Source of the DNA: an uncultured bacterium
GTDB taxonomy: Bacteria; Auribacterota; Tritonobacteria; UBA1439
DNA: 12,637 nucleotides
Assembly (NCBI GenBank): GCA_964460305.1
Contig: CAYWRA010000007.1
Span: forward strand, 33,631 to 46,267
Direction: 5' to 3'
Part shown: positions 2,387-12,473 of the stretch, piece by piece
How positions within the stretch are numbered: the first letter of the stretch is position 1
Layout: every line of letters begins with the position of its first letter
Program-made: the position numbers and the translations under genes
Notes under the pieces: generated by a model
Database searches by the model: none
What the model was told of the DNA's origin: nothing
The model's input: only the letters and a program-made list of their open reading frames with translations

Positions 2387-2851
2387 CTAACCGCGGAATA
2401 TGAAATAGACCGCCCCCAACAGGCAGAGGCCGGCCCAGGCATAGTTCAGCTTCACCGGCTGGTTCATGTAGAGAAGGGCGAACGGCACGAAAACCGAGAG
2501 GGTGATGACCTCCTGGATGATCTTAAGTTGGGGGAGGTTAAGCACTTCGTACCCGATGCGGTTCGCCGGGACCTGGAGGAGATATTCGAAAAGCGCGATC
2601 CCCCAGCTTGCGATTGCGGCGATAAACCATTTTTTGTCGTAGAGATTCCTCAGGTGCGCGTACCAGGCAAAGGTCATGAAGACGTTCGACAGGACGAGAA
2701 GCGCGATTGTTCTAATGATGGGCGGAATGGAAAACTCCTTCGTTTGTTTTTTCGATTGCCCGGCGAAAGCCGGGAATGGATAGTATAGCGCACTGCACGT
2801 GATCCGCAAGGGAGACACCCCGCCAAGTGGCGAGAACCACTCCCGGCTCAT
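2387..2851 (-). CDS. Small integral membrane protein, DUF486/DMT-superfamily-like (4-TM, about 110-aa core); the annotated ATG gives a 40-aa N-terminal extension
   Basis: The core TIALLVLSNVFMTFAWYAHL...WFIAAIASWGIALFEYLLQVPANRIGY...LKIIQEVITLSVFVPFALLYMNQPVKLNYAWAGLCLLGAVYFIF matches what I recall of the DUF486 (PF04342) small DMT-like proteins. The start at 2849-2851 overlaps the M48 stop as ATGA (ACATGAGCC), indicating translational coupling. An internal perfect SD AAGGAG at about 2737-2742, followed 6 nt later by ATT, could mark a shorter real start near 2728. Confidence 0.65.
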   Translation of the reverse strand: MSREWFSPLGGVSPLRITCSALYYPFPAFAGQSKKQTKEFSIPPIIRTIALLVLSNVFMTFAWYAHLRNLYDKKWFIAAIASWGIALFEYLLQVPANRIGYEVLNLPQLKIIQEVITLSVFVPFALLYMNQPVKLNYAWAGLCLLGAVYFIFRG

Positions 2852-4122
2852 GTGACGATCATCGCGTCCGTCTCAGCCGGCATGCGGCGGAGGTAGCCCC
2901 GCAGGGCGAAGATGCGCTGGAGTATGGGGGGATGGCTGTAATCCAGGAAAACCTTGACCGGGTGGGGCGTCAGGTTTGAGAGATTGTCGGCGCTCAATTT
3001 CTTCAGGGCTGAAATCAGCGCTTCCGGCCTCCCATAGGTCAGCGCGGCGTATGCGTCGGCTTGATACTCGTGTTTCCGCGAAAGGAGGTTCCCTAATATG
3101 GAGAGCACCGTTTGTATCGGAATGAATAGGAAGCCGAAAAAGAAGATGCTCGCATAAATGGAGACATGGCTCATTCCAAATGCCTCAAAAAGCCCCCTGT
3201 TGTTTATGAACAGGGAAAGGACGAAGAACATAAGCCCCGTCGTCAGTATCATGAGGAGGGTGGACTTGAGAATGTGCCCCCTTTTGTAATGACCCATCTC
3301 ATGCGCGAGGACGGAAACCAGCTCATCCACCGTATGTTTTTGGATAAGCGTGTCGAACAACACGATTCTTCGGAACCTCCCAAGACCGGCGAAGAAGGCG
3401 TTTGATTTGCCGGACCTCTTGGAGGCATCCATCGTAAACACACCTCTCATTTTGAAGCCCTGCGACCCGGCATAGTCCTCGATGGCGGTTTTAAGTCCCC
3501 CATCCTCAAGCGGCGTGAATTTGTTGAAAATGGGCATGATGACCGCAGGGGCTATAAAAATGAAGAAGAGCTGAAATAGCGCGATAGCAGCCCAGCAGAA
3601 GAGCCACGCCAGCTCCCCGGCGGCGGAGAAGATCCATATCACCGCCGAGAAGAGAATGCCTCCCAGGAGGGCGCTGAGAAGCCACTTTTTAATGGTGTCC
3701 GTGATGAAAGTCCTGCGAGTAGTTTTGTTGAACCCGAATTTCTCCTCAATGACAAAAGTGTGGTAGGCGTCAAACGGGATGTGGCACAGCTGAGACAGGA
3801 GCATCACCCCACCGGCGAACATAAGACCCGTCGGAATCTGGCCGAAACCGAAACCCCTGGCAAGGCGATCGATAAAATTGAAACCGCCGGCCAGGATGAA
3901 CCCTATTGTGAGTACGGTCGCCAATCCGCCGCTCAGAAGCGAAAGCGTCGTATTCTCCCTGAGATAAGCCTGCGATTTCCCATATTTTGACGGATCGTAC
4001 ACGTCCTTGAATTCATCCGGCAGCTCGGCCTTGAGGTGCCGGAGGTTCAGGAGGTCGGCGGCCAAGTCGAGCAGATAGCCGCCTACGAGAATGACTATAA
4101 TCGCCGCGAGATAGATGTTCAT
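2848..4122 (-). CDS. M48-family zinc metallopeptidase, Ste24/CAAX-prenyl-protease-like (multi-TM, HEXXH)
   Basis: HEMGH (in VLAHEMGHYKRGH) followed by a downstream Glu ligand region (HEYQADAYA); seven or more hydrophobic helices. I prefer the ATG at 4120-4122 (MNIYLAAIIVILVGG...), which has GGGA 7 nt upstream. The ORF-track start at 4161 is a TTG lying inside the heptamer repeat array with no SD. Confidence 0.85.
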   Translation of the reverse strand: MNIYLAAIIVILVGGYLLDLAADLLNLRHLKAELPDEFKDVYDPSKYGKSQAYLRENTTLSLLSGGLATVLTIGFILAGGFNFIDRLARGFGFGQIPTGLMFAGGVMLLSQLCHIPFDAYHTFVIEEKFGFNKTTRRTFITDTIKKWLLSALLGGILFSAVIWIFSAAGELAWLFCWAAIALFQLFFIFIAPAVIMPIFNKFTPLEDGGLKTAIEDYAGSQGFKMRGVFTMDASKRSGKSNAFFAGLGRFRRIVLFDTLIQKHTVDELVSVLAHEMGHYKRGHILKSTLLMILTTGLMFFVLSLFINNRGLFEAFGMSHVSIYASIFFFGFLFIPIQTVLSILGNLLSRKHEYQADAYAALTYGRPEALISALKKLSADNLSNLTPHPVKVFLDYSHPPILQRIFALRGYLRRMPAETDAMIVT

Positions 4123-4125
4123 GTA

Positions 4126-4173
4126 AAATCCCAAATCCCATGGGAAAATCCCAAACCCCAAATCCCAAATCCC
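4126..4173 (-). repeat. Array of six heptamer repeats AAA(T/C)CCC on the plus strand, (GGGAUUU)n in the mRNA sense. It is interrupted by the palindrome TCCCATGGGA and lies immediately 5' of the M48 start codon.
   Basis: Read directly: aaatccc aaatccc atggg aaaatccc aaacccc aaatccc aaatccc. The minus (mRNA) sense gives UUGGGAUUUGGGAUUUGGGGUUUGGGAUUUUCCCAUGGGAUUUGGGAUUUUAC-AUG, with six GGG tracts separated by 3-4 nt. Confidence 0.7.
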
Positions 4174-4210
4174 AATACTGAGAATGACAAATGATAAAAC
4201 ACATAGAAGC

Positions 4211-4255
4211 CAGAATCCGGAATACTGACTCCTGGGCTCTATCTTCCGGATTCTG
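4211..4255. repeat. Perfect 12-bp inverted repeat CAGAATCCGGAA / TTCCGGATTCTG with a 21-nt loop; a third, diverged inverted copy at 4264-4275
   Basis: 4211-4222 cagaatccggaa and 4244-4255 ttccggattctg are exact reverse complements. 4264-4275 attctggattcc is the reverse complement of GGAATCCAGAAT (10/12 match to AGAATCCGGAAT). A small GAATGC-t-GCATTC hairpin lies at 4255-4267. Confidence 0.6.
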
Positions 4256-4296
4256 AATGCTGCATTCTGGATTCCAACCCAATTGCGTTCATCCCC

Positions 4297-4348
4297 CGCC
4301 CCGTCCCGAAGGGATCCCGTTGGGACGGGGCGCGGTTTTCTATTCTTC
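4297..4348 (+). other. Twin-hairpin element copy A with a closing 7-bp stem, followed on the plus strand by a T-rich run, making it terminator-like in the plus orientation only
   Basis: Element is CGCCCCG-TCCCGAAGGGA-TCCCGTTGGGA-CGGGGCG, with outer stem CGCCCCG/CGGGGCG and two 4-bp-stem hairpins with loops GAA and GTT. It is followed after 3 nt by TTTTCTATTCTT (4337-4348). On the minus strand the hairpin is followed by GGGGGAUGAACG, with no U-run. Confidence 0.5.
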
Positions 4349-4389: not shown

Positions 4390-5739
4390 TCAAAACCGGC
4401 GCCAGAACGCCTTGGCGAGGGTGCGGGACTTCGCGCAGATCTTCTCCTCGTCCACGGTAAGCAGCTCGCCACCGCGCATGAGGATCTTCCCGTTCACGAT
4501 CGTCGTGTCCACTCTCGCCCCGCAGAGGCCGAAGAGGAAATGGCCGAGGAAGGTACCCTCATCAAGCGGGGTTGGCGGAACGTAGTCAAGAACGATCAGA
4601 TCGGCATACGCCCCTTTCGAGAGCGAGCCCACCGGCTTCGCGAAGTGCCGGCGCGCGATCGCCGCATTGTTCCTGAGAAGGAGGCCGCACGACTCGACGA
4701 AGAAGACGCGCGGATCCCTTGCGGCAAGCTTGTGGAGAATGTTCGCAACCCGGACCTCATCGCGCATGTTTGCGGTCATGCCGTCAGTCCCGAGACCGAC
4801 GAGCACGCCTTTAGCGAGCATCTTCATGACCGGCGCCACCCCCACCGCATTGTTCATGTTGGACTGCGGATTGTGCACCACGGGGGTGTCCGTGCTGCGC
4901 AACATATCCATCTCCGCGGGGTTCACGTGCACGCAGTGGATGGCGAGCGATTTCGGGCCGAGGCCTCCCGCCCTGTTCAAACGGCGCACCACGCGCTGGC
5001 AGTACTTCTTCTCATTGACCGCCTGGTCGGCGGCATCCTCCGCCACGTGGACGTGGATGCCGACGCCGAGATCGTTCGCCGCGGCGACGGATTCCACAAG
5101 CGTCTCCTCATTCACCGTAAAGAGGGCGTGAAGTCCGAACATGGCGGAGACCATGTCATTCCCCTTCTTTTGCGCCGCCTGTATTTTTTTGATAAAACGG
5201 ACGTTCTCCGCGATCCCCTCCTTCCCCTTCCCGTAACGGTCGGAGGACCCGAGGCTGAGGCAACCTCGCACACCGGTCTCACGCAGGGCGTCCTCGATCG
5301 GGTCGAGGCAGCCTTCCTGACACCCCTGGCTCTCGTGGTGGTCGATGATGGTGGTGGTTCCGCTCCGTATGCAATCGATGAGCGGAATGAGCGCGCTATA
5401 GTAAAGATCCTCCCTACCCAATGCCTTGTCGAGCGGCCACCAGAGGCGCTCGAGGATCTGGACGAAATTCGCCGGTGGCGGCTGCTTGGGCGATAACCCG
5501 CGGGCGAAGGTCGAATAGAGATGCATGTGAGCGTTGATCATCCCCGGCATAATGACCCTTCCGCCGGCGTCGATGTACGTCGCCCCAACCGCCTTCTTCT
5601 TCAGCGCCGCCGTCTTCCCCACCCCCTCTATGACGTCCCCCTTAATCCATACCGCTCCGTCATGTATGACCTTGTTATTTTCGCCGAGGGTGATGACTAT
5701 TCCGTTGCCGATTAACAGATCCTTTGTTTTAGAAACCAT
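4390..5739 (-). CDS. ssnA: SsnA-family amidohydrolase (metal-dependent hydrolase/deaminase superfamily)
   Basis: 449 aa with a subtype-I amidohydrolase HxH motif (INAHMHLY). Several blocks match what I recall of E. coli SsnA: LWWPLDKALGREDLYYSAL vs LWWRLDRALDEESLYYSGL; IIDHHESQ vs VIDHHASP; HNPQSNMNNAVGV vs HNARSNMNNHVGY; and the C-terminal AFWRRF vs MWRRM. GGAGGGAG SD 5 nt upstream. Confidence 0.9.
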   Translation of the reverse strand: MVSKTKDLLIGNGIVITLGENNKVIHDGAVWIKGDVIEGVGKTAALKKKAVGATYIDAGGRVIMPGMINAHMHLYSTFARGLSPKQPPPANFVQILERLWWPLDKALGREDLYYSALIPLIDCIRSGTTTIIDHHESQGCQEGCLDPIEDALRETGVRGCLSLGSSDRYGKGKEGIAENVRFIKKIQAAQKKGNDMVSAMFGLHALFTVNEETLVESVAAANDLGVGIHVHVAEDAADQAVNEKKYCQRVVRRLNRAGGLGPKSLAIHCVHVNPAEMDMLRSTDTPVVHNPQSNMNNAVGVAPVMKMLAKGVLVGLGTDGMTANMRDEVRVANILHKLAARDPRVFFVESCGLLLRNNAAIARRHFAKPVGSLSKGAYADLIVLDYVPPTPLDEGTFLGHFLFGLCGARVDTTIVNGKILMRGGELLTVDEEKICAKSRTLAKAFWRRF

Positions 5740-5784: not shown

Positions 5785-5818
5785 ACCCTTTCCCAAAGGG
5801 ACCCCGTTGGGGAAGGGT
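5785..5818 (+). repeat. Twin-hairpin element copy B with a closing 6-bp stem
   Basis: Element is ACCCTT-TCCCAAAGGGA-CCCCGTTGGGG-AAGGGT, 32 nt downstream of the ygfK-like stop in the mRNA sense. The architecture and orientation match copy A. Confidence 0.6.
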
Positions 5819-5850: not shown

Positions 5851-8361
5851 CTACTTCCCTGCCTTCTTCTCTTCGGGCGTGCGCTTCCTCAGCGATATGG
5901 CGTTCACAAAACACTGGAGCGCGCAGAGGCTGCAGCCGACACACTTTCCCGGGTCGGTGATCGGGTGCTTATCCTTATCAAGGGCGATCGCCATGTACGG
6001 ACAGCGGGTGCAGTTGCCGCAGCTCACGCAGAGATCGGGGTTCGCTTCGGAGATCTTTTTCTCAGCCGGCAATGCCATGAAATCCCTGATCGGCTTCGGC
6101 TGCGCTCTCCCGACAAGCTCCGAGACCGACCGTATCCCCCGGTCCTCCATGAGGTGGCTCAATCCGGAGCGGAGATCGTTAATGATTCCGTATCCGTATT
6201 TCTCCACGATGGTGCAGAACTGGACCGTGCCGGTGCCAAGCGCCAGGAAATCGGCCGCGGCCTTGTAATCCATGGGGCCGGCGTTCCCCGAGATGCAGAC
6301 GTCCATGCCGCCCGCGCTGGCAAGGCAGAGGTAGCTGATCGGCGTGACGCCATCGCCGCTCATGCCGACGACAATTCCTTCCTCCCACCCCTTCTTCTCT
6401 CCCTGCTTGAAGGCGAGTGTGGGGAACGTGTTCGCCAGCGTGACGCCCGCTTTCTTATCGGGATACTTTTCGAAGACCTTCTTCACGGCGCGCAGGATTA
6501 CCTTGATATCGGTAACGGCGCTGGTGAGCTTGAACAGCTTGGGGATCTCCGGTGAGCCGGCCTCCATCACCCAGTCGATGATCTTCGCCGTGAGGGCCGC
6601 GTTCTGCGATACGATGTCACCCTCCGCCCCCTCTCCCCCCTGCGGGCAGGAGAGGCTGTACTCGATGAAGAGCGCGCCGGCCTTTTCCAGCTTTCTCGTG
6701 TTGCTCTGCCAGGAGTTTCTATCGGCTGCGTCGTTCCCCGTCACCGTTCCACCCGTGGATGCGCCGGTGAGCCTGTCGGGGTATATCTTGATTAACTTCT
6801 TGATCTCCGCGCAGACCCGGTCGAGCGTGTGCTCGGAAACGTTATCGCAATTGCCCCAGGTCTTCTCGGTGAAGCAGTTCATGTACTCGGCGGGGATGTG
6901 GATCGGGAGGTTGTCGAACGCCGTCTTCAAAATCGCCCCCGGCCATCCCGCATCGTATCCGGCCTTCACCTGTTCGAATCCGTCCGTCGCGGGCGATGCC
7001 GACAGCAGGAATGGGCAGCTTATTTTCCTGCCGAAGAAATCCGTCTCAAGCGATACCGGCTCGAACTCGTAGCCTGGAACGGTGACGACGCTCTTGGTGG
7101 GTTTTTCGACCCTCGGTTTTTTACCGCCCATGAGGGCACAGTCGACCCCCAAAGCTGCGTTCTTGCCCGCCGCCGTCGCCTCGACGACCGTGGACGGGCC
7201 GTTGACCGCGTCGCCGGCATAGAATATCGCGCGATGCTTGACCAGTTTCATCCCCGGCTTTGCGCCGATGGCGACGATCACGCCCTCGATATCCTCACGC
7301 TCCTGTTCGCTCCCGTGCACCTCCTTGAGATCCTTGAGGCTGAATTTCTTCCCCGGCGGAAGCATAACCCTGACAGTAGAGAGACCGGCGATCTTTTTCC
7401 CCTTAGACTTTATCTCCTTCACGCGCGTGCGGCCGCTCACTTCGATGCCGTGGCCGAGCAGCTCCCGCCGCTCCCTCGCGGTAAGCGGCATCTCGCCGAT
7501 ACTCTCGAGAGCGAACATCTCAACCCTCCTCGCCCCCAGCCGCTTCGCCGTCACCGCACAGTCAAGCGCGCTCGCCCCTCCGCCGATCACCGCCACGTTG
7601 CCTTTCAACCGATATCTTTCAGGCTTCTTAAGATAATCGAGGCCGAAGATCGTTTTATCCTCGTTCGGTATTCCCATCCCGACGGGCGCCCAGAGTCCCG
7701 TCGCCACCACCACCGCATCGTATCCCTTGGAAAACAGTTTCTCCGGATCGTCGATCTTCTTACCGGCGCGCAGCTTTATATTCTCCATCGAGAATACGAA
7801 CTTGAGATCCCCTTCCAATACCGCCTTCGGCAGGCGGCACCCCGGTATGCACGAGCACATTCCCCCGGCCTGGCGTTCGCTCTCAAAGATATCCACCGCG
7901 TACCCCTTCTGGGCTAGTACGATAGCCGCGCCAAGCCCCGCAGGGCCGGCGCCGATGACCGCCACCCTCTTCCCGTTGAGGGGGGCGCGCTCGAACTTCG
8001 GCATCACCCCCATCGCCTTCGCCCTGGCGATGACGGTCGCCTGGACCGCCGGGATATTCACGGGGCTGTCGAACCTCTCATGCACGCATGCCTTCATACA
8101 ATGCCAGTCCGGGCAAACCATCCCGCAGATTCCGCCCAAGGGGTTCTGGCTCAGGATCAGCGCGGCTGCCCGCCTGATGTCGGACGGGTTCCCCACCCTG
8201 GCGGCCATGATGAAATCAAACGGTGAGCAATCGCAGGGGCATGCCTTTGTGCATGGCATCTCGGCGCAGTGCTCGCACTTCTCTATTTCACTTTCAAGCT
8301 GGGCCTCGGTGAGCAACACATTGTCCGGATCCGTCTTTAACGATAACTTCGACCTGGTCAT
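5851..8361 (-). CDS. ygfK: YgfK-like iron-sulfur flavoprotein. A single polypeptide fuses a GltD/PreT-like FAD/NAD(P) oxidoreductase (N-terminal Cys cluster region plus two Rossmann folds), a dihydropyrimidine/dihydroorotate-dehydrogenase-like FMN TIM barrel, and a C-terminal 2x[4Fe-4S] ferredoxin.
   Basis: N-terminus has CEHCAEMPCTKACPCDCSP and NPLGGICGMVCPDWHCMKAC, the GltD/DPD domain-II Fe-S motifs. Rossmann 1 is RVAVIGAGPAGLGAAIVLAQKGYAVDIFE and Rossmann 2 is VAVIGGGASALDCAVTAKRLG. Mid-region ISCPFLLSASPATDG...GWPGAILKT...EYSLSCPQ matches the DHOD/DPD (PreA) barrel with an active-site Cys. C-terminus CVSCGNCTRCP...CVGCSLCALQC is a 2x 4Fe-4S ferredoxin. AAGGAG SD 5 nt upstream. Confidence 0.9.
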   Translation of the reverse strand: MTRSKLSLKTDPDNVLLTEAQLESEIEKCEHCAEMPCTKACPCDCSPFDFIMAARVGNPSDIRRAAALILSQNPLGGICGMVCPDWHCMKACVHERFDSPVNIPAVQATVIARAKAMGVMPKFERAPLNGKRVAVIGAGPAGLGAAIVLAQKGYAVDIFESERQAGGMCSCIPGCRLPKAVLEGDLKFVFSMENIKLRAGKKIDDPEKLFSKGYDAVVVATGLWAPVGMGIPNEDKTIFGLDYLKKPERYRLKGNVAVIGGGASALDCAVTAKRLGARRVEMFALESIGEMPLTARERRELLGHGIEVSGRTRVKEIKSKGKKIAGLSTVRVMLPPGKKFSLKDLKEVHGSEQEREDIEGVIVAIGAKPGMKLVKHRAIFYAGDAVNGPSTVVEATAAGKNAALGVDCALMGGKKPRVEKPTKSVVTVPGYEFEPVSLETDFFGRKISCPFLLSASPATDGFEQVKAGYDAGWPGAILKTAFDNLPIHIPAEYMNCFTEKTWGNCDNVSEHTLDRVCAEIKKLIKIYPDRLTGASTGGTVTGNDAADRNSWQSNTRKLEKAGALFIEYSLSCPQGGEGAEGDIVSQNAALTAKIIDWVMEAGSPEIPKLFKLTSAVTDIKVILRAVKKVFEKYPDKKAGVTLANTFPTLAFKQGEKKGWEEGIVVGMSGDGVTPISYLCLASAGGMDVCISGNAGPMDYKAAADFLALGTGTVQFCTIVEKYGYGIINDLRSGLSHLMEDRGIRSVSELVGRAQPKPIRDFMALPAEKKISEANPDLCVSCGNCTRCPYMAIALDKDKHPITDPGKCVGCSLCALQCFVNAISLRKRTPEEKKAGK

Positions 8362-9985: not shown

Positions 9986-10008
9986 TCCCGAAGGGACCCC
10001 CTCGGGGT
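9986..10008 (+). repeat. Twin-hairpin element copy C with no obvious closing stem
   Basis: TCCCGAAGGGA-CCCCCTCGGGG-T, 17 nt downstream of the Mo-subunit stop in the mRNA sense. In the mRNA it reads GGGGUCCCUUCGGGA, a C(UUCG)G tetraloop hairpin. Confidence 0.55.
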
Positions 10009-12416: not shown

Positions 12417-12473
12417 AGTGATTCAGGGTCAAGTGATTCAGGGTCGATTCAGTCCCAAGTGATTCAGGGTCAG
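12417..12473. repeat. Tandem 15-bp direct repeats AGTGATTCAGGGTCA (three full copies plus one partial GATTCAGTCCCA) upstream of the hydroxylase operon
   Basis: Full copies at 12417-12431, 12432-12445 and 12458-12473, with a degenerate copy at 12446-12457. The GATTCAG core starts at 12420, 12435, 12446 and 12461. Confidence 0.6.

Follow-up and report, generated by a model that had tools for sequence, protein, structure and literature searches.

A GGGATTT heptanucleotide array before the start codon of an M48 peptidase gene, and its turnover among relatives

The GGGATTT array is a short tandem repeat located directly upstream of a gene for an M48/Ste24-type membrane metallopeptidase (hereafter M48) in a 12,637-nucleotide stretch of contig CAYWRA010000007.1 from an uncultured bacterium. 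This whole stretch of 12.6 kb is called the window, and coordinates refer to it unless another locus is named. The M48 gene is flanked on the same strand by an amidohydrolase gene upstream and by DMT_6 and Band_7 genes downstream. The flanking genes share this strand, therefore the G-rich strand of the array is the sense strand of any transcript across the spacer. The spacer between the amidohydrolase and M48 genes is 267 nt long and is a mosaic of repeats.

Read on the minus strand from 4175 to 4120, the sequence consists of TT, two GGGATTT units, one GGGGTTT unit, a further GGGATTT unit, a single T, CCCAT, two more GGGATTT units, TAC and the ATG. The first-pass annotation of this DNA had reported six heptamers directly 5' of the ATG at 4122 and an array split by a 10-bp palindrome. 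Both descriptions are confirmed, with the refinements that one unit is the variant GGGGTTT and that the units form a block of four and a block of two with the 6 nt TCCCAT between them. It is this interruption that creates the palindrome, TCCCATGGGA. The array contains six tracts of three or more Gs. Five of the six exact copies of GGGATTT in the window fall within 4126-4173, the expectation for the whole window being 2.6. Tandem Repeats Finder reports a period of 7 over 4126-4175 with 7.3 copies and a score of 49, and this is the strongest period-7 signal in the window. The array is a heptanucleotide simple sequence repeat (SSR): a 7-nt unit is iterated head to tail beyond chance, its copy number varies among relatives and its site is non-coding. 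An ENA metagenome contig (L010) carries a spacer and array identical to those of the window. Outside the M48 leaders, the window and 21 kb from the closest relative (about 34 kb together) showed no further GGGATTT array, and a search of Rfam at permissive thresholds gave no match at the array locus.

The position of the array depends on where translation of M48 begins. The open reading frame (ORF) list extends the gene to a TTG at 4161, giving an ORF at 2848-4161 of 437 amino acids. We aligned this TTG-extended ORF with 16 homologues of 64-88% identity. All 16 orthologues begin at a methionine matching ATG 4122 (MNIYL...), the 13-residue N-terminal extension is found in none of them, and M14 and N15 of the extended ORF are invariant. 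The N-terminal Pfam domain begins about 27 residues past ATG 4122. The alignment bears out the earlier preference for ATG 4122 and the earlier suspicion that the extension from TTG 4161 is an artefact. The repeat is therefore non-coding. A second ATG, at 4141 inside the palindrome, opens an out-of-frame upstream ORF. Its geometry, GGGAUUUU-N3-AUG, is like that of the real M48 start. This ATG is absent in the closest relative, L011, and the upstream ORF is not conserved and probably lacks function.

The gene order amidohydrolase, M48, Band_7 is kept in relatives, and the leaders of their M48 genes differ in the number of units. The window has 4+2 GGGRTTT units before the M48 ATG. The leader of L011 (88% protein identity) has 2+2 units, TTGGGATTTGGGGTTTG and GGGATTTGGGATTTTAG, separated by an unrelated 23-nt insert. 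This insert lies at the position of the palindrome and differs from the TCCCAT of the window, yet it contains TCCC. There are two units in L152 (86% identity; TTTGGGATTTGGGGTTTAGA), one in L151 (87%; TTGGGATTTAACC) and about one, GGGTTTAGA, in L139 (84%; CTGGGTTTAGA). L140 (87%) has no unit; its leader reads TTTGGATTTTTCC and is preceded by long TGTCATT/AAATGAC hairpin arrays. In four loci at 79-80% identity the spacer is 84 nt long, has a plain hairpin and lacks heptamers. A GGGRTTT seed at the Shine-Dalgarno (SD) position is common to L011, L152, L151 and L139, and L152 and L011 have inherited the pair GGGATTT-GGGGTTT in common with the window. No compared leader other than that of the window has four closely spaced G-tracts or multiple GGA motifs. 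The first-pass annotation had named absence of the array from the leaders of close relatives as the finding that would count against its reading, and this is largely what the comparison returned, with 0-2 units or a split 2+2 in the syntenic relatives.

Beyond the last 20 nt or so the leaders of the relatives cannot be aligned. The remainder of the spacer in close relatives is occupied by other heptamers, namely CACGGAG, CCTGATT, GCTTACG, GTGAAAT, ATTCTGG and CTCTGTG. TGTCATT hairpins are found in L140, CACGGAG together with CCTGATT in L011, and GTGAAAT in L139; AGAATCC hairpin arrays are found in other spacers of L011. Judged from these sequences, one GGGRTTT unit at the ribosome-binding site appears to be ancestral to the clade at 84-88% identity, and the series of leaders points to a stepwise expansion in copy number of which the window is the maximum. 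The spacer itself is a hot spot of turnover for unrelated heptamer arrays.

The same heptamer is present in many other genomes. Arrays of (GGGATTT)n with three to six units are found in both orientations in bacteria of the candidate phyla radiation (CPR), in Chloroflexi, Acidobacteria, Planctomycetes and Cyanobacteria, and in viral contigs. The exact 29-mer GGGATTTGGGATTTGGGGTTTGGGATTTT of the distal block occurs in nine places in six unrelated metagenome-assembled genomes (MAGs), which belong to a CPR bacterium, Anaerolineales, Vicinamibacterales (four copies), Planctomycetales, an oscillatorian cyanobacterium and an unclassified bacterium. In a scan for four GGGRTTT units, the non-telomeric loci among the matches listed include at least 14 with the perfect order AAAA at the variable position and none with the order of the window, AAGA. 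A three-unit scan of viral contigs gave AAA in 10 of 10 cases and AGA in none. Seven of the viral-contig arrays found with this three-unit pattern have three units, two have four and one has five, and this small sample shows no preference for four units.

A fixed cross-phylum element of 31 nt was considered on the basis of the exact 29-mer matches and was rejected. Perfect arrays are commoner, the variant of the window is absent from the samples of the degenerate scans, and the GGGATTT-GGGGTTT pair is inherited within the M48 clade. Two unit types allow 16 possible four-unit arrays; a common family is therefore expected to give exact matches in a collection of 596 Gb. Most of the metagenome matches listed for the four-unit GGGRTTT scan (L019-L138) are contigs of 1-5 kb that carry (GGGGTTT)n at both ends with the G-strand 3'-outward. 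These contigs look like gene-sized ciliate chromosomes with C4A3-type telomeres, which are unrelated to the window.

The arrays occur in several kinds of genomic context. Some lie in frame within genes with Pfam matches on both sides of the array, including the GyrA C-terminal propeller, UvrC, TrmD, methionine aminopeptidase (Map) and FemAB, where they read ...NPKSQIPNP.... The in-frame examples (L001 at about 3970-3997, L104 at 1137-1171, L025 at 589-616, L129 at 4031-4065, L008 at 3122-3149 and L031 at 6987-7028) come from unrelated uncultured bacteria, their NPKSQIPNP-type segments are linkers, and the set also includes an amidohydrolase. The G-strand translation, LGFGIWGLGF, belongs to a membrane glycosyltransferase in one case and makes the hydrophobic core of a lipoprotein signal peptide in another. 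The latter is found in an Anaerolineales MAG (L002, 1345-1372), in which MLGFGIWGLGFFLSAC... makes up the hydrophobic core and lipobox region of the signal peptide of a solute-binding lipoprotein. Other arrays, with the C-rich strand in the mRNA, are 7-24 nt away from the start codons of the genes for ribosomal protein L27 and NAD kinase and of a terminase-like gene, which they precede; an array before the start codon of a UbiX-like gene has the G-rich strand as mRNA. Arrays are also found just past stop codons, or as the 3' arm of a hairpin with an inverted AAATCCC array, and other heptamer arrays commonly flank them. The two orientations and the generic contexts fit a class of repeat at the level of DNA, not an RNA element with a single function.

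The Vicinamibacterales MAG, DAIRVG01 (L003-L005), has the identical 29-mer at four sites whose flanks are not shared. Other heptamer families are present in this MAG (TTGGGAG, GAATGGC, CGAATCC and ACTCGGG). Simple local slippage is no obvious explanation for these observations.

For the M48 leader we consider it probable that the array is a heptanucleotide repeat expanded by slippage from a seed close to the SD position, the spacer being permissive, and that any effect of a quadruplex or hairpin on translation is incidental. It would belong to the long SSRs, or repeats like the short tandemly repeated repetitive (STRR) sequences, as a G-rich subtype, and would be a lineage-specific expansion in the amidohydrolase-M48 spacer. 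The seed would be a single ancestral GGGRTTT unit at the M48 ribosome-binding site. Replication slippage, a point mutation producing GGGGTTT and a small interruption, TCCCAT, could then have given the 4+2 units, at a permissive site where unrelated heptamer arrays come and go. The array is likely to be part of the M48 leader or of an intercistronic RNA, with its G-rich strand sense. The last unit would provide the only SD-like element, a weak one. A three-tetrad RNA quadruplex, a UCCCA/UGGGA hairpin over the SD-like GGGA, or the U-rich tracts might each produce some effect of the upstream units, and such effects would be by-products that change with copy number and not a conserved dedicated switch.

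Several points weigh against this interpretation. The array may have acquired a regulatory role locally, and the combination of at least four G-tracts with a C-tract able to sequester the SD-like element could be more than coincidence. In the spacer a scan for promoters detected none of the sigma-70 type, returning just a site in the coding region and a weak terminator-like hairpin (the UCCCA/UGGGA stem), and slippage itself is a process that we infer. The inverted-pair arrays and the four identical variants in the Vicinamibacterales MAG suggest that simple slippage gives an incomplete account of the class.

The features of the locus are collected in Table 1. Arrays of the AGAATCC type with inverted copies form hairpins in several spacers of the lineage, being found at 4206-4275 in the window and at 4077-4139, 4707-4794 and 15966-15986 in L011. 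They are a second heptamer family of the lineage and are not G-rich. In the window, the (C/G)AGAATC-type array at 4244-4275 folds on its inverted copy through perfectly matched arms of 12 bp (4244-4255 and 4211-4222).

The GC-rich hairpin core GGGRTCCCTTYGGGA is present on the minus strand of three intergenic spacers of the window (4304-4318, 5791-5805 and 9986-10000). A search for this core gave four matches, 0.04 being expected by chance. In relatives the core is found in L011 (12341-12355 and 15147-15161), L139 (164-178) and L153 (650-664 and 2137-2151). The dispersed hairpin looks like a lineage-specific element, similar to the repetitive extragenic palindromic (REP) sequences or to a terminator. 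A 15-nt tandem repeat, GACCCTGAATCACTT, is present in three to four copies at 12417-12472, 5' of the gene for a molybdopterin-dehydrogenase large subunit, and has the core CTGAATC in common with the AGAATC-type heptamers.

Table 1. Features at the M48 locus and in the spacer upstream of it (window coordinates).
Feature	Coordinates	Strand	Basis or remark
M48/Ste24-type membrane metallopeptidase gene, 424 aa, ATG 4122	2848..4122	-	Pfam Peptidase_M48_N and Peptidase_M48; 16-orthologue alignment
Out-of-frame upstream ORF, ATG 4141 inside palindrome, 42 codons, overlaps M48 start; probably without function	4013..4141	-	In frame of ORF 4013..4282
Artefactual 13-codon extension from TTG 4161 (MGFGIFPWDLGFY)	4123..4161	-	ORF list; present in no orthologue
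Proximal block, two GGGATTT units	4126..4139	-	Last GGGA (4132..4129) is a weak SD-like element, 6 nt before ATG
Palindrome TCCCATGGGA splitting the array, 10 bp	4136..4145	.	C-tract can pair with last GGGA (UCCCA/UGGGA, 5 bp)
Distal block (TT, two GGGATTT, GGGGTTT, GGGATTT, T)	4145..4175	-	Four G-tracts, the quadruplex minimum
TGTCATT-type heptamer remnant, two units (TATCATT, TGTCATT, then C)	4182..4198	-	Long hairpin arrays of TGTCATT at the same site in L140
Second heptamer array, (G/C)AGAATC type (GAATCCA, GAATGCA, GCATTCA, GAATCCG), with inverted copy	4206..4275	-	
GC-rich palindromic hairpin, 21-nt arms, core GGGATCCCTTCGGGA, 3' of amidohydrolase gene	4294..4335	-	Element dispersed in the lineage

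An RNA G-quadruplex riboregulator is one alternative to a slippage-expanded repeat. A K+-stabilised three-tetrad quadruplex of the first four G-tracts and the UCCCA/UGGGA hairpin would together set access to the SD-like GGGA and the AUG. The first-pass annotation had called the array a textbook RNA G-quadruplex motif, and as a motif it is one: the tracts fit G3N1-7, with canonical spacings of G3N3-4, and the G4Hunter score is 1.72 over the first four tracts and 1.08 over all 48 nt. With at least four tracts of three or more Gs and short loops, the array has by prediction the potential to form a quadruplex. ViennaRNA with quadruplex energies prefers a three-tetrad quadruplex to a hairpin for the isolated block (-8.4 versus -3.4 kcal/mol), and also prefers the quadruplex in an 81-nt segment comprising the array and start codon (-18.0 versus -15.3 kcal/mol), where the C-tract pairs with the last GGGA. 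A related DNA oligonucleotide, (GGGAATC)3GGG, forms a K+-dependent quadruplex with a T1/2 of 50 deg C, a stability that GGGGATT repeats exceed (PMC4692102).

Comparison with relatives does not support a functional role for this motif. In contexts of 163 nt and 290 nt the quadruplex has no advantage over ordinary pairing and is no longer part of the minimum-energy fold. Quadruplex capacity is not conserved, because the window alone has four or more closely spaced G-tracts; in relatives there are 0-2 tracts, or two pairs with 23 nt between them, and the same leader in L140 holds heptamers that are not G-rich. The counts of units in viral contigs, seven arrays with three, two with four and one with five, likewise show no preference for four units. 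Guo and Bartel reportedly found in 2016 that bacterial RNA quadruplexes are largely unfolded or depleted, which also speaks against a riboregulator of this type. Taken together, we regard it as unlikely.

The other sequence relevant to initiation is the GGGA of the last unit, which had been noted earlier as lying where an SD sequence would be. It does end 6 nt before the ATG, but its predicted pairing with the anti-SD is weak at -4.9 kcal/mol, compared with -8.7 to -12.2 for strong sites in the window and about 0 for the orthologues at 79-80% identity. By these estimates M48 would be a weak-SD or no-SD gene in this group, to which the seed unit gives a weak SD-like element.

It has also to be considered that heptamer arrays spread across phyla by an active process, a tiny mobile repeat or a templated insertion, which would put them into leaders and terminator hairpins and also, in frame, into surface loops of proteins as essential as GyrA, UvrC, TrmD and Map, the M48 leader being a landing site at which the array later expanded. 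Such a spread is suggested because arrays interrupt essential genes in frame, occur as inverted pairs and include four identical copies in one MAG. We hold this, too, to be unlikely as an account of the class.

Selection offers a further possibility, that the array is a contingency or tuning locus. Gain or loss of 7 nt would alter the leader, or shift ATG 4141 relative to the M48 start, and so produce reversible variation in M48 expression. Close relatives do range from zero to six units, and phase variation through SSRs in 5' leaders is known, examples being the AGAT repeats of Moraxella uspA2 (cited in PMC4679880) and repeats in the 5' untranslated regions of Haemophilus (PMC12721329). No length variant within a population turned up, the comparison covering one further contig with the array, which is identical, and a contig from a second sample that stops before the array. 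The gene is of a housekeeping type, a membrane protease and not a surface antigen, and slippage is expected to be infrequent in a tract as short and impure as these six interrupted units. For G-rich heptamers Rehm et al. considered phase variation unlikely on the ground that their neighbours are general metabolic genes (PMC4692102). A selected contingency locus therefore seems distinctly unlikely to us.

Proteins that bind RNA have been put forward for repeats of this kind. CsrA/RsmA binding to the six GGA motifs, or S1 or a cold-shock protein (Csp) binding to the U-rich spacers, would here control translation initiation. The array has six GGA/GGGAU motifs, the last of them overlapping the SD position, and MacGregor proposed S1, Csp or CsrA for heptamer repeats abutting start codons (PMC4679880). 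Multiplicity of GGA is not conserved, and relatives share just the SD-proximal GGGA or GGGG. Arrays before the L27, NAD kinase and terminase-like genes present the C-rich strand as mRNA, and others lie inside coding regions, so that the array lacks the specificity of orientation expected for an RNA site. Dual-site binding by CsrA uses GGA motifs spaced roughly 10 nt or more apart. The 7-nt spacing in the array is below this distance, and the predicted folds place none of the GGA motifs in hairpin loops. No csrA or rsmA gene was found among the genes of the window or the called genes of relatives, which are too short a sequence to judge the genome. CsrA/RsmA leaders and the M48 leader are alike in having several GGA motifs with one at the SD position; they differ in that CsrA leaders have GGAs in hairpin loops 10-60 nt apart, whereas the window has a rigid 7-nt tandem array whose motifs are not conserved in orthologous leaders. 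On these comparisons a CsrA platform appears disfavoured for the array, and control by any of these proteins is quite improbable.

At the M48 locus itself, the array might have arrived as a tiny mobile or templated repeat insertion, of the sort proposed for very small mobile repeats of cyanobacteria, and not have grown in place. The occurrence of an identical 29-mer in six unrelated MAGs, one of which has it at four sites, with no flanks in common would accord with this, as would the in-frame interruption of conserved proteins and the inverted pairs and mosaics with other heptamers. Exact four-unit matches are expected, as set out above. Local expansion explains the presence of a seed at the locus in relatives and the grading of copy number from 1 to 2, 2+2 and 4+2, and the GGGATTT-GGGGTTT pair is inherited with L152 and L011. 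The analysis revealed neither a transposase nor a target duplication, and no flank was conserved. Arrival by insertion is thus a very improbable origin of this array. That the repeats are coding, translation from TTG 4161 adding MGFGIFPWDLGFY to the peptidase, has next to no likelihood: the open frame does reach the TTG and the G-strand frame LGFGIWGLGF serves elsewhere (L002) as a signal-peptide core, but every aligned orthologue begins with MNIYL, the Pfam N-terminal domain starts only well after ATG 4122 and the differing repeat lengths of relatives would shift the frame.

Under the favoured explanation, slippage expansion from a seed, the array is best read for the M48 gene as evolutionary noise that forms the leader of a housekeeping membrane protease. 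For annotation, ATG 4122 should be kept and no riboswitch-like element inferred. The case documents fast turnover of heptamers at a single syntenic position. One and the same heptamer of G3 and four A/T positions also recurs in uncultured phyla that are very distant from each other, and essential enzymes tolerate it within their reading frames. The graded series of 1, 2, 2+2 and 4+2 units provides natural material for relating copy number and quadruplex capacity to translation.

The array fits a known kind of heptamer repeat, and the GGGATTT unit and its hosts are, as far as we found, apparently undescribed before: a literature search gave no relevant match. To our knowledge the GGGATTT unit has not been singled out in surveys of long SSRs and STRRs. 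STRR heptamers were reportedly described from cyanobacteria by Mazel and colleagues in 1990. Elhai and colleagues are said to have described in 2008 the small dispersed repeats (SDRs) of Nostoc, tiny repeats present in intergenic DNA, in heptamer arrays and occasionally in genes, for which mobility was suspected. These SDRs are reportedly defined units of 21-27 nt and not tandem heptamers. The M48 locus is unlike them in that stepwise expansion from a seed would be a simpler account there.

Among the long SSRs of bacteria, heptamers are the most abundant class, which has been put down to polymerase slippage (Mrazek 2007, as summarised in PMC4692102 and PMC4679880). By the same account, long SSRs in the isolate genomes surveyed are mostly intergenic and variable between relatives. 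The window has a heptanucleotide unit that is likewise intergenic and variable between relatives. The GGGATTT arrays differ from these long SSRs and from STRRs in coming from uncultured lineages.

G-rich heptamers were described by Rehm (2015) as GGGAATC in Xanthomonas and GGGGA(C/T)T in Nostoc, where they are found genome-wide, mostly in non-coding DNA near the ends of ORFs (PMC4692102). They occur singly or as inverted pairs, and their length varies between close relatives with the gene context kept. They form K+-dependent quadruplexes in vitro, and no regulatory role was found for them (PMC4692102). The window has a similar unit of 7 nt with a tract of three to four Gs and an A/T-rich loop, in an intergenic position near ORF ends, and GGGATTT is one base away from a cyclic form of the Nostoc unit GGGGATT. 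GGGATTT arrays also vary in length within a kept gene context, occur in single and inverted-pair forms and have four or more tracts. They differ in the GGGATTT unit itself and in their hosts, the closest named homologues of the window being MAGs of the Desulfobacterota type and the other arrays belonging to other phyla. In addition, the G-rich strand in the window is sense and lies directly before a start codon, which is the less common orientation in the survey of Rehm.

TAACTGA heptamers form direct repeats next to start codons, on their upstream side, in marine Beggiatoaceae, Cyanobacteria and Bacteroidetes (MacGregor 2015; PMC4679880). They have a patchy distribution across phyla with no known mechanism of transfer, are occasionally found within ORFs and number 169 sets in one genome (PMC4679880). 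TAACTGA is without SD character and has stops in all frames, whereas GGGATTT has no stop in any frame and contributes a weak SD-like GGGA. In other respects the two are alike: both have two to six copies that end a few nt before the start codon, over the expected ribosome-binding site, and GGGATTT arrays are also patchy across phyla and occasionally found inside ORFs.

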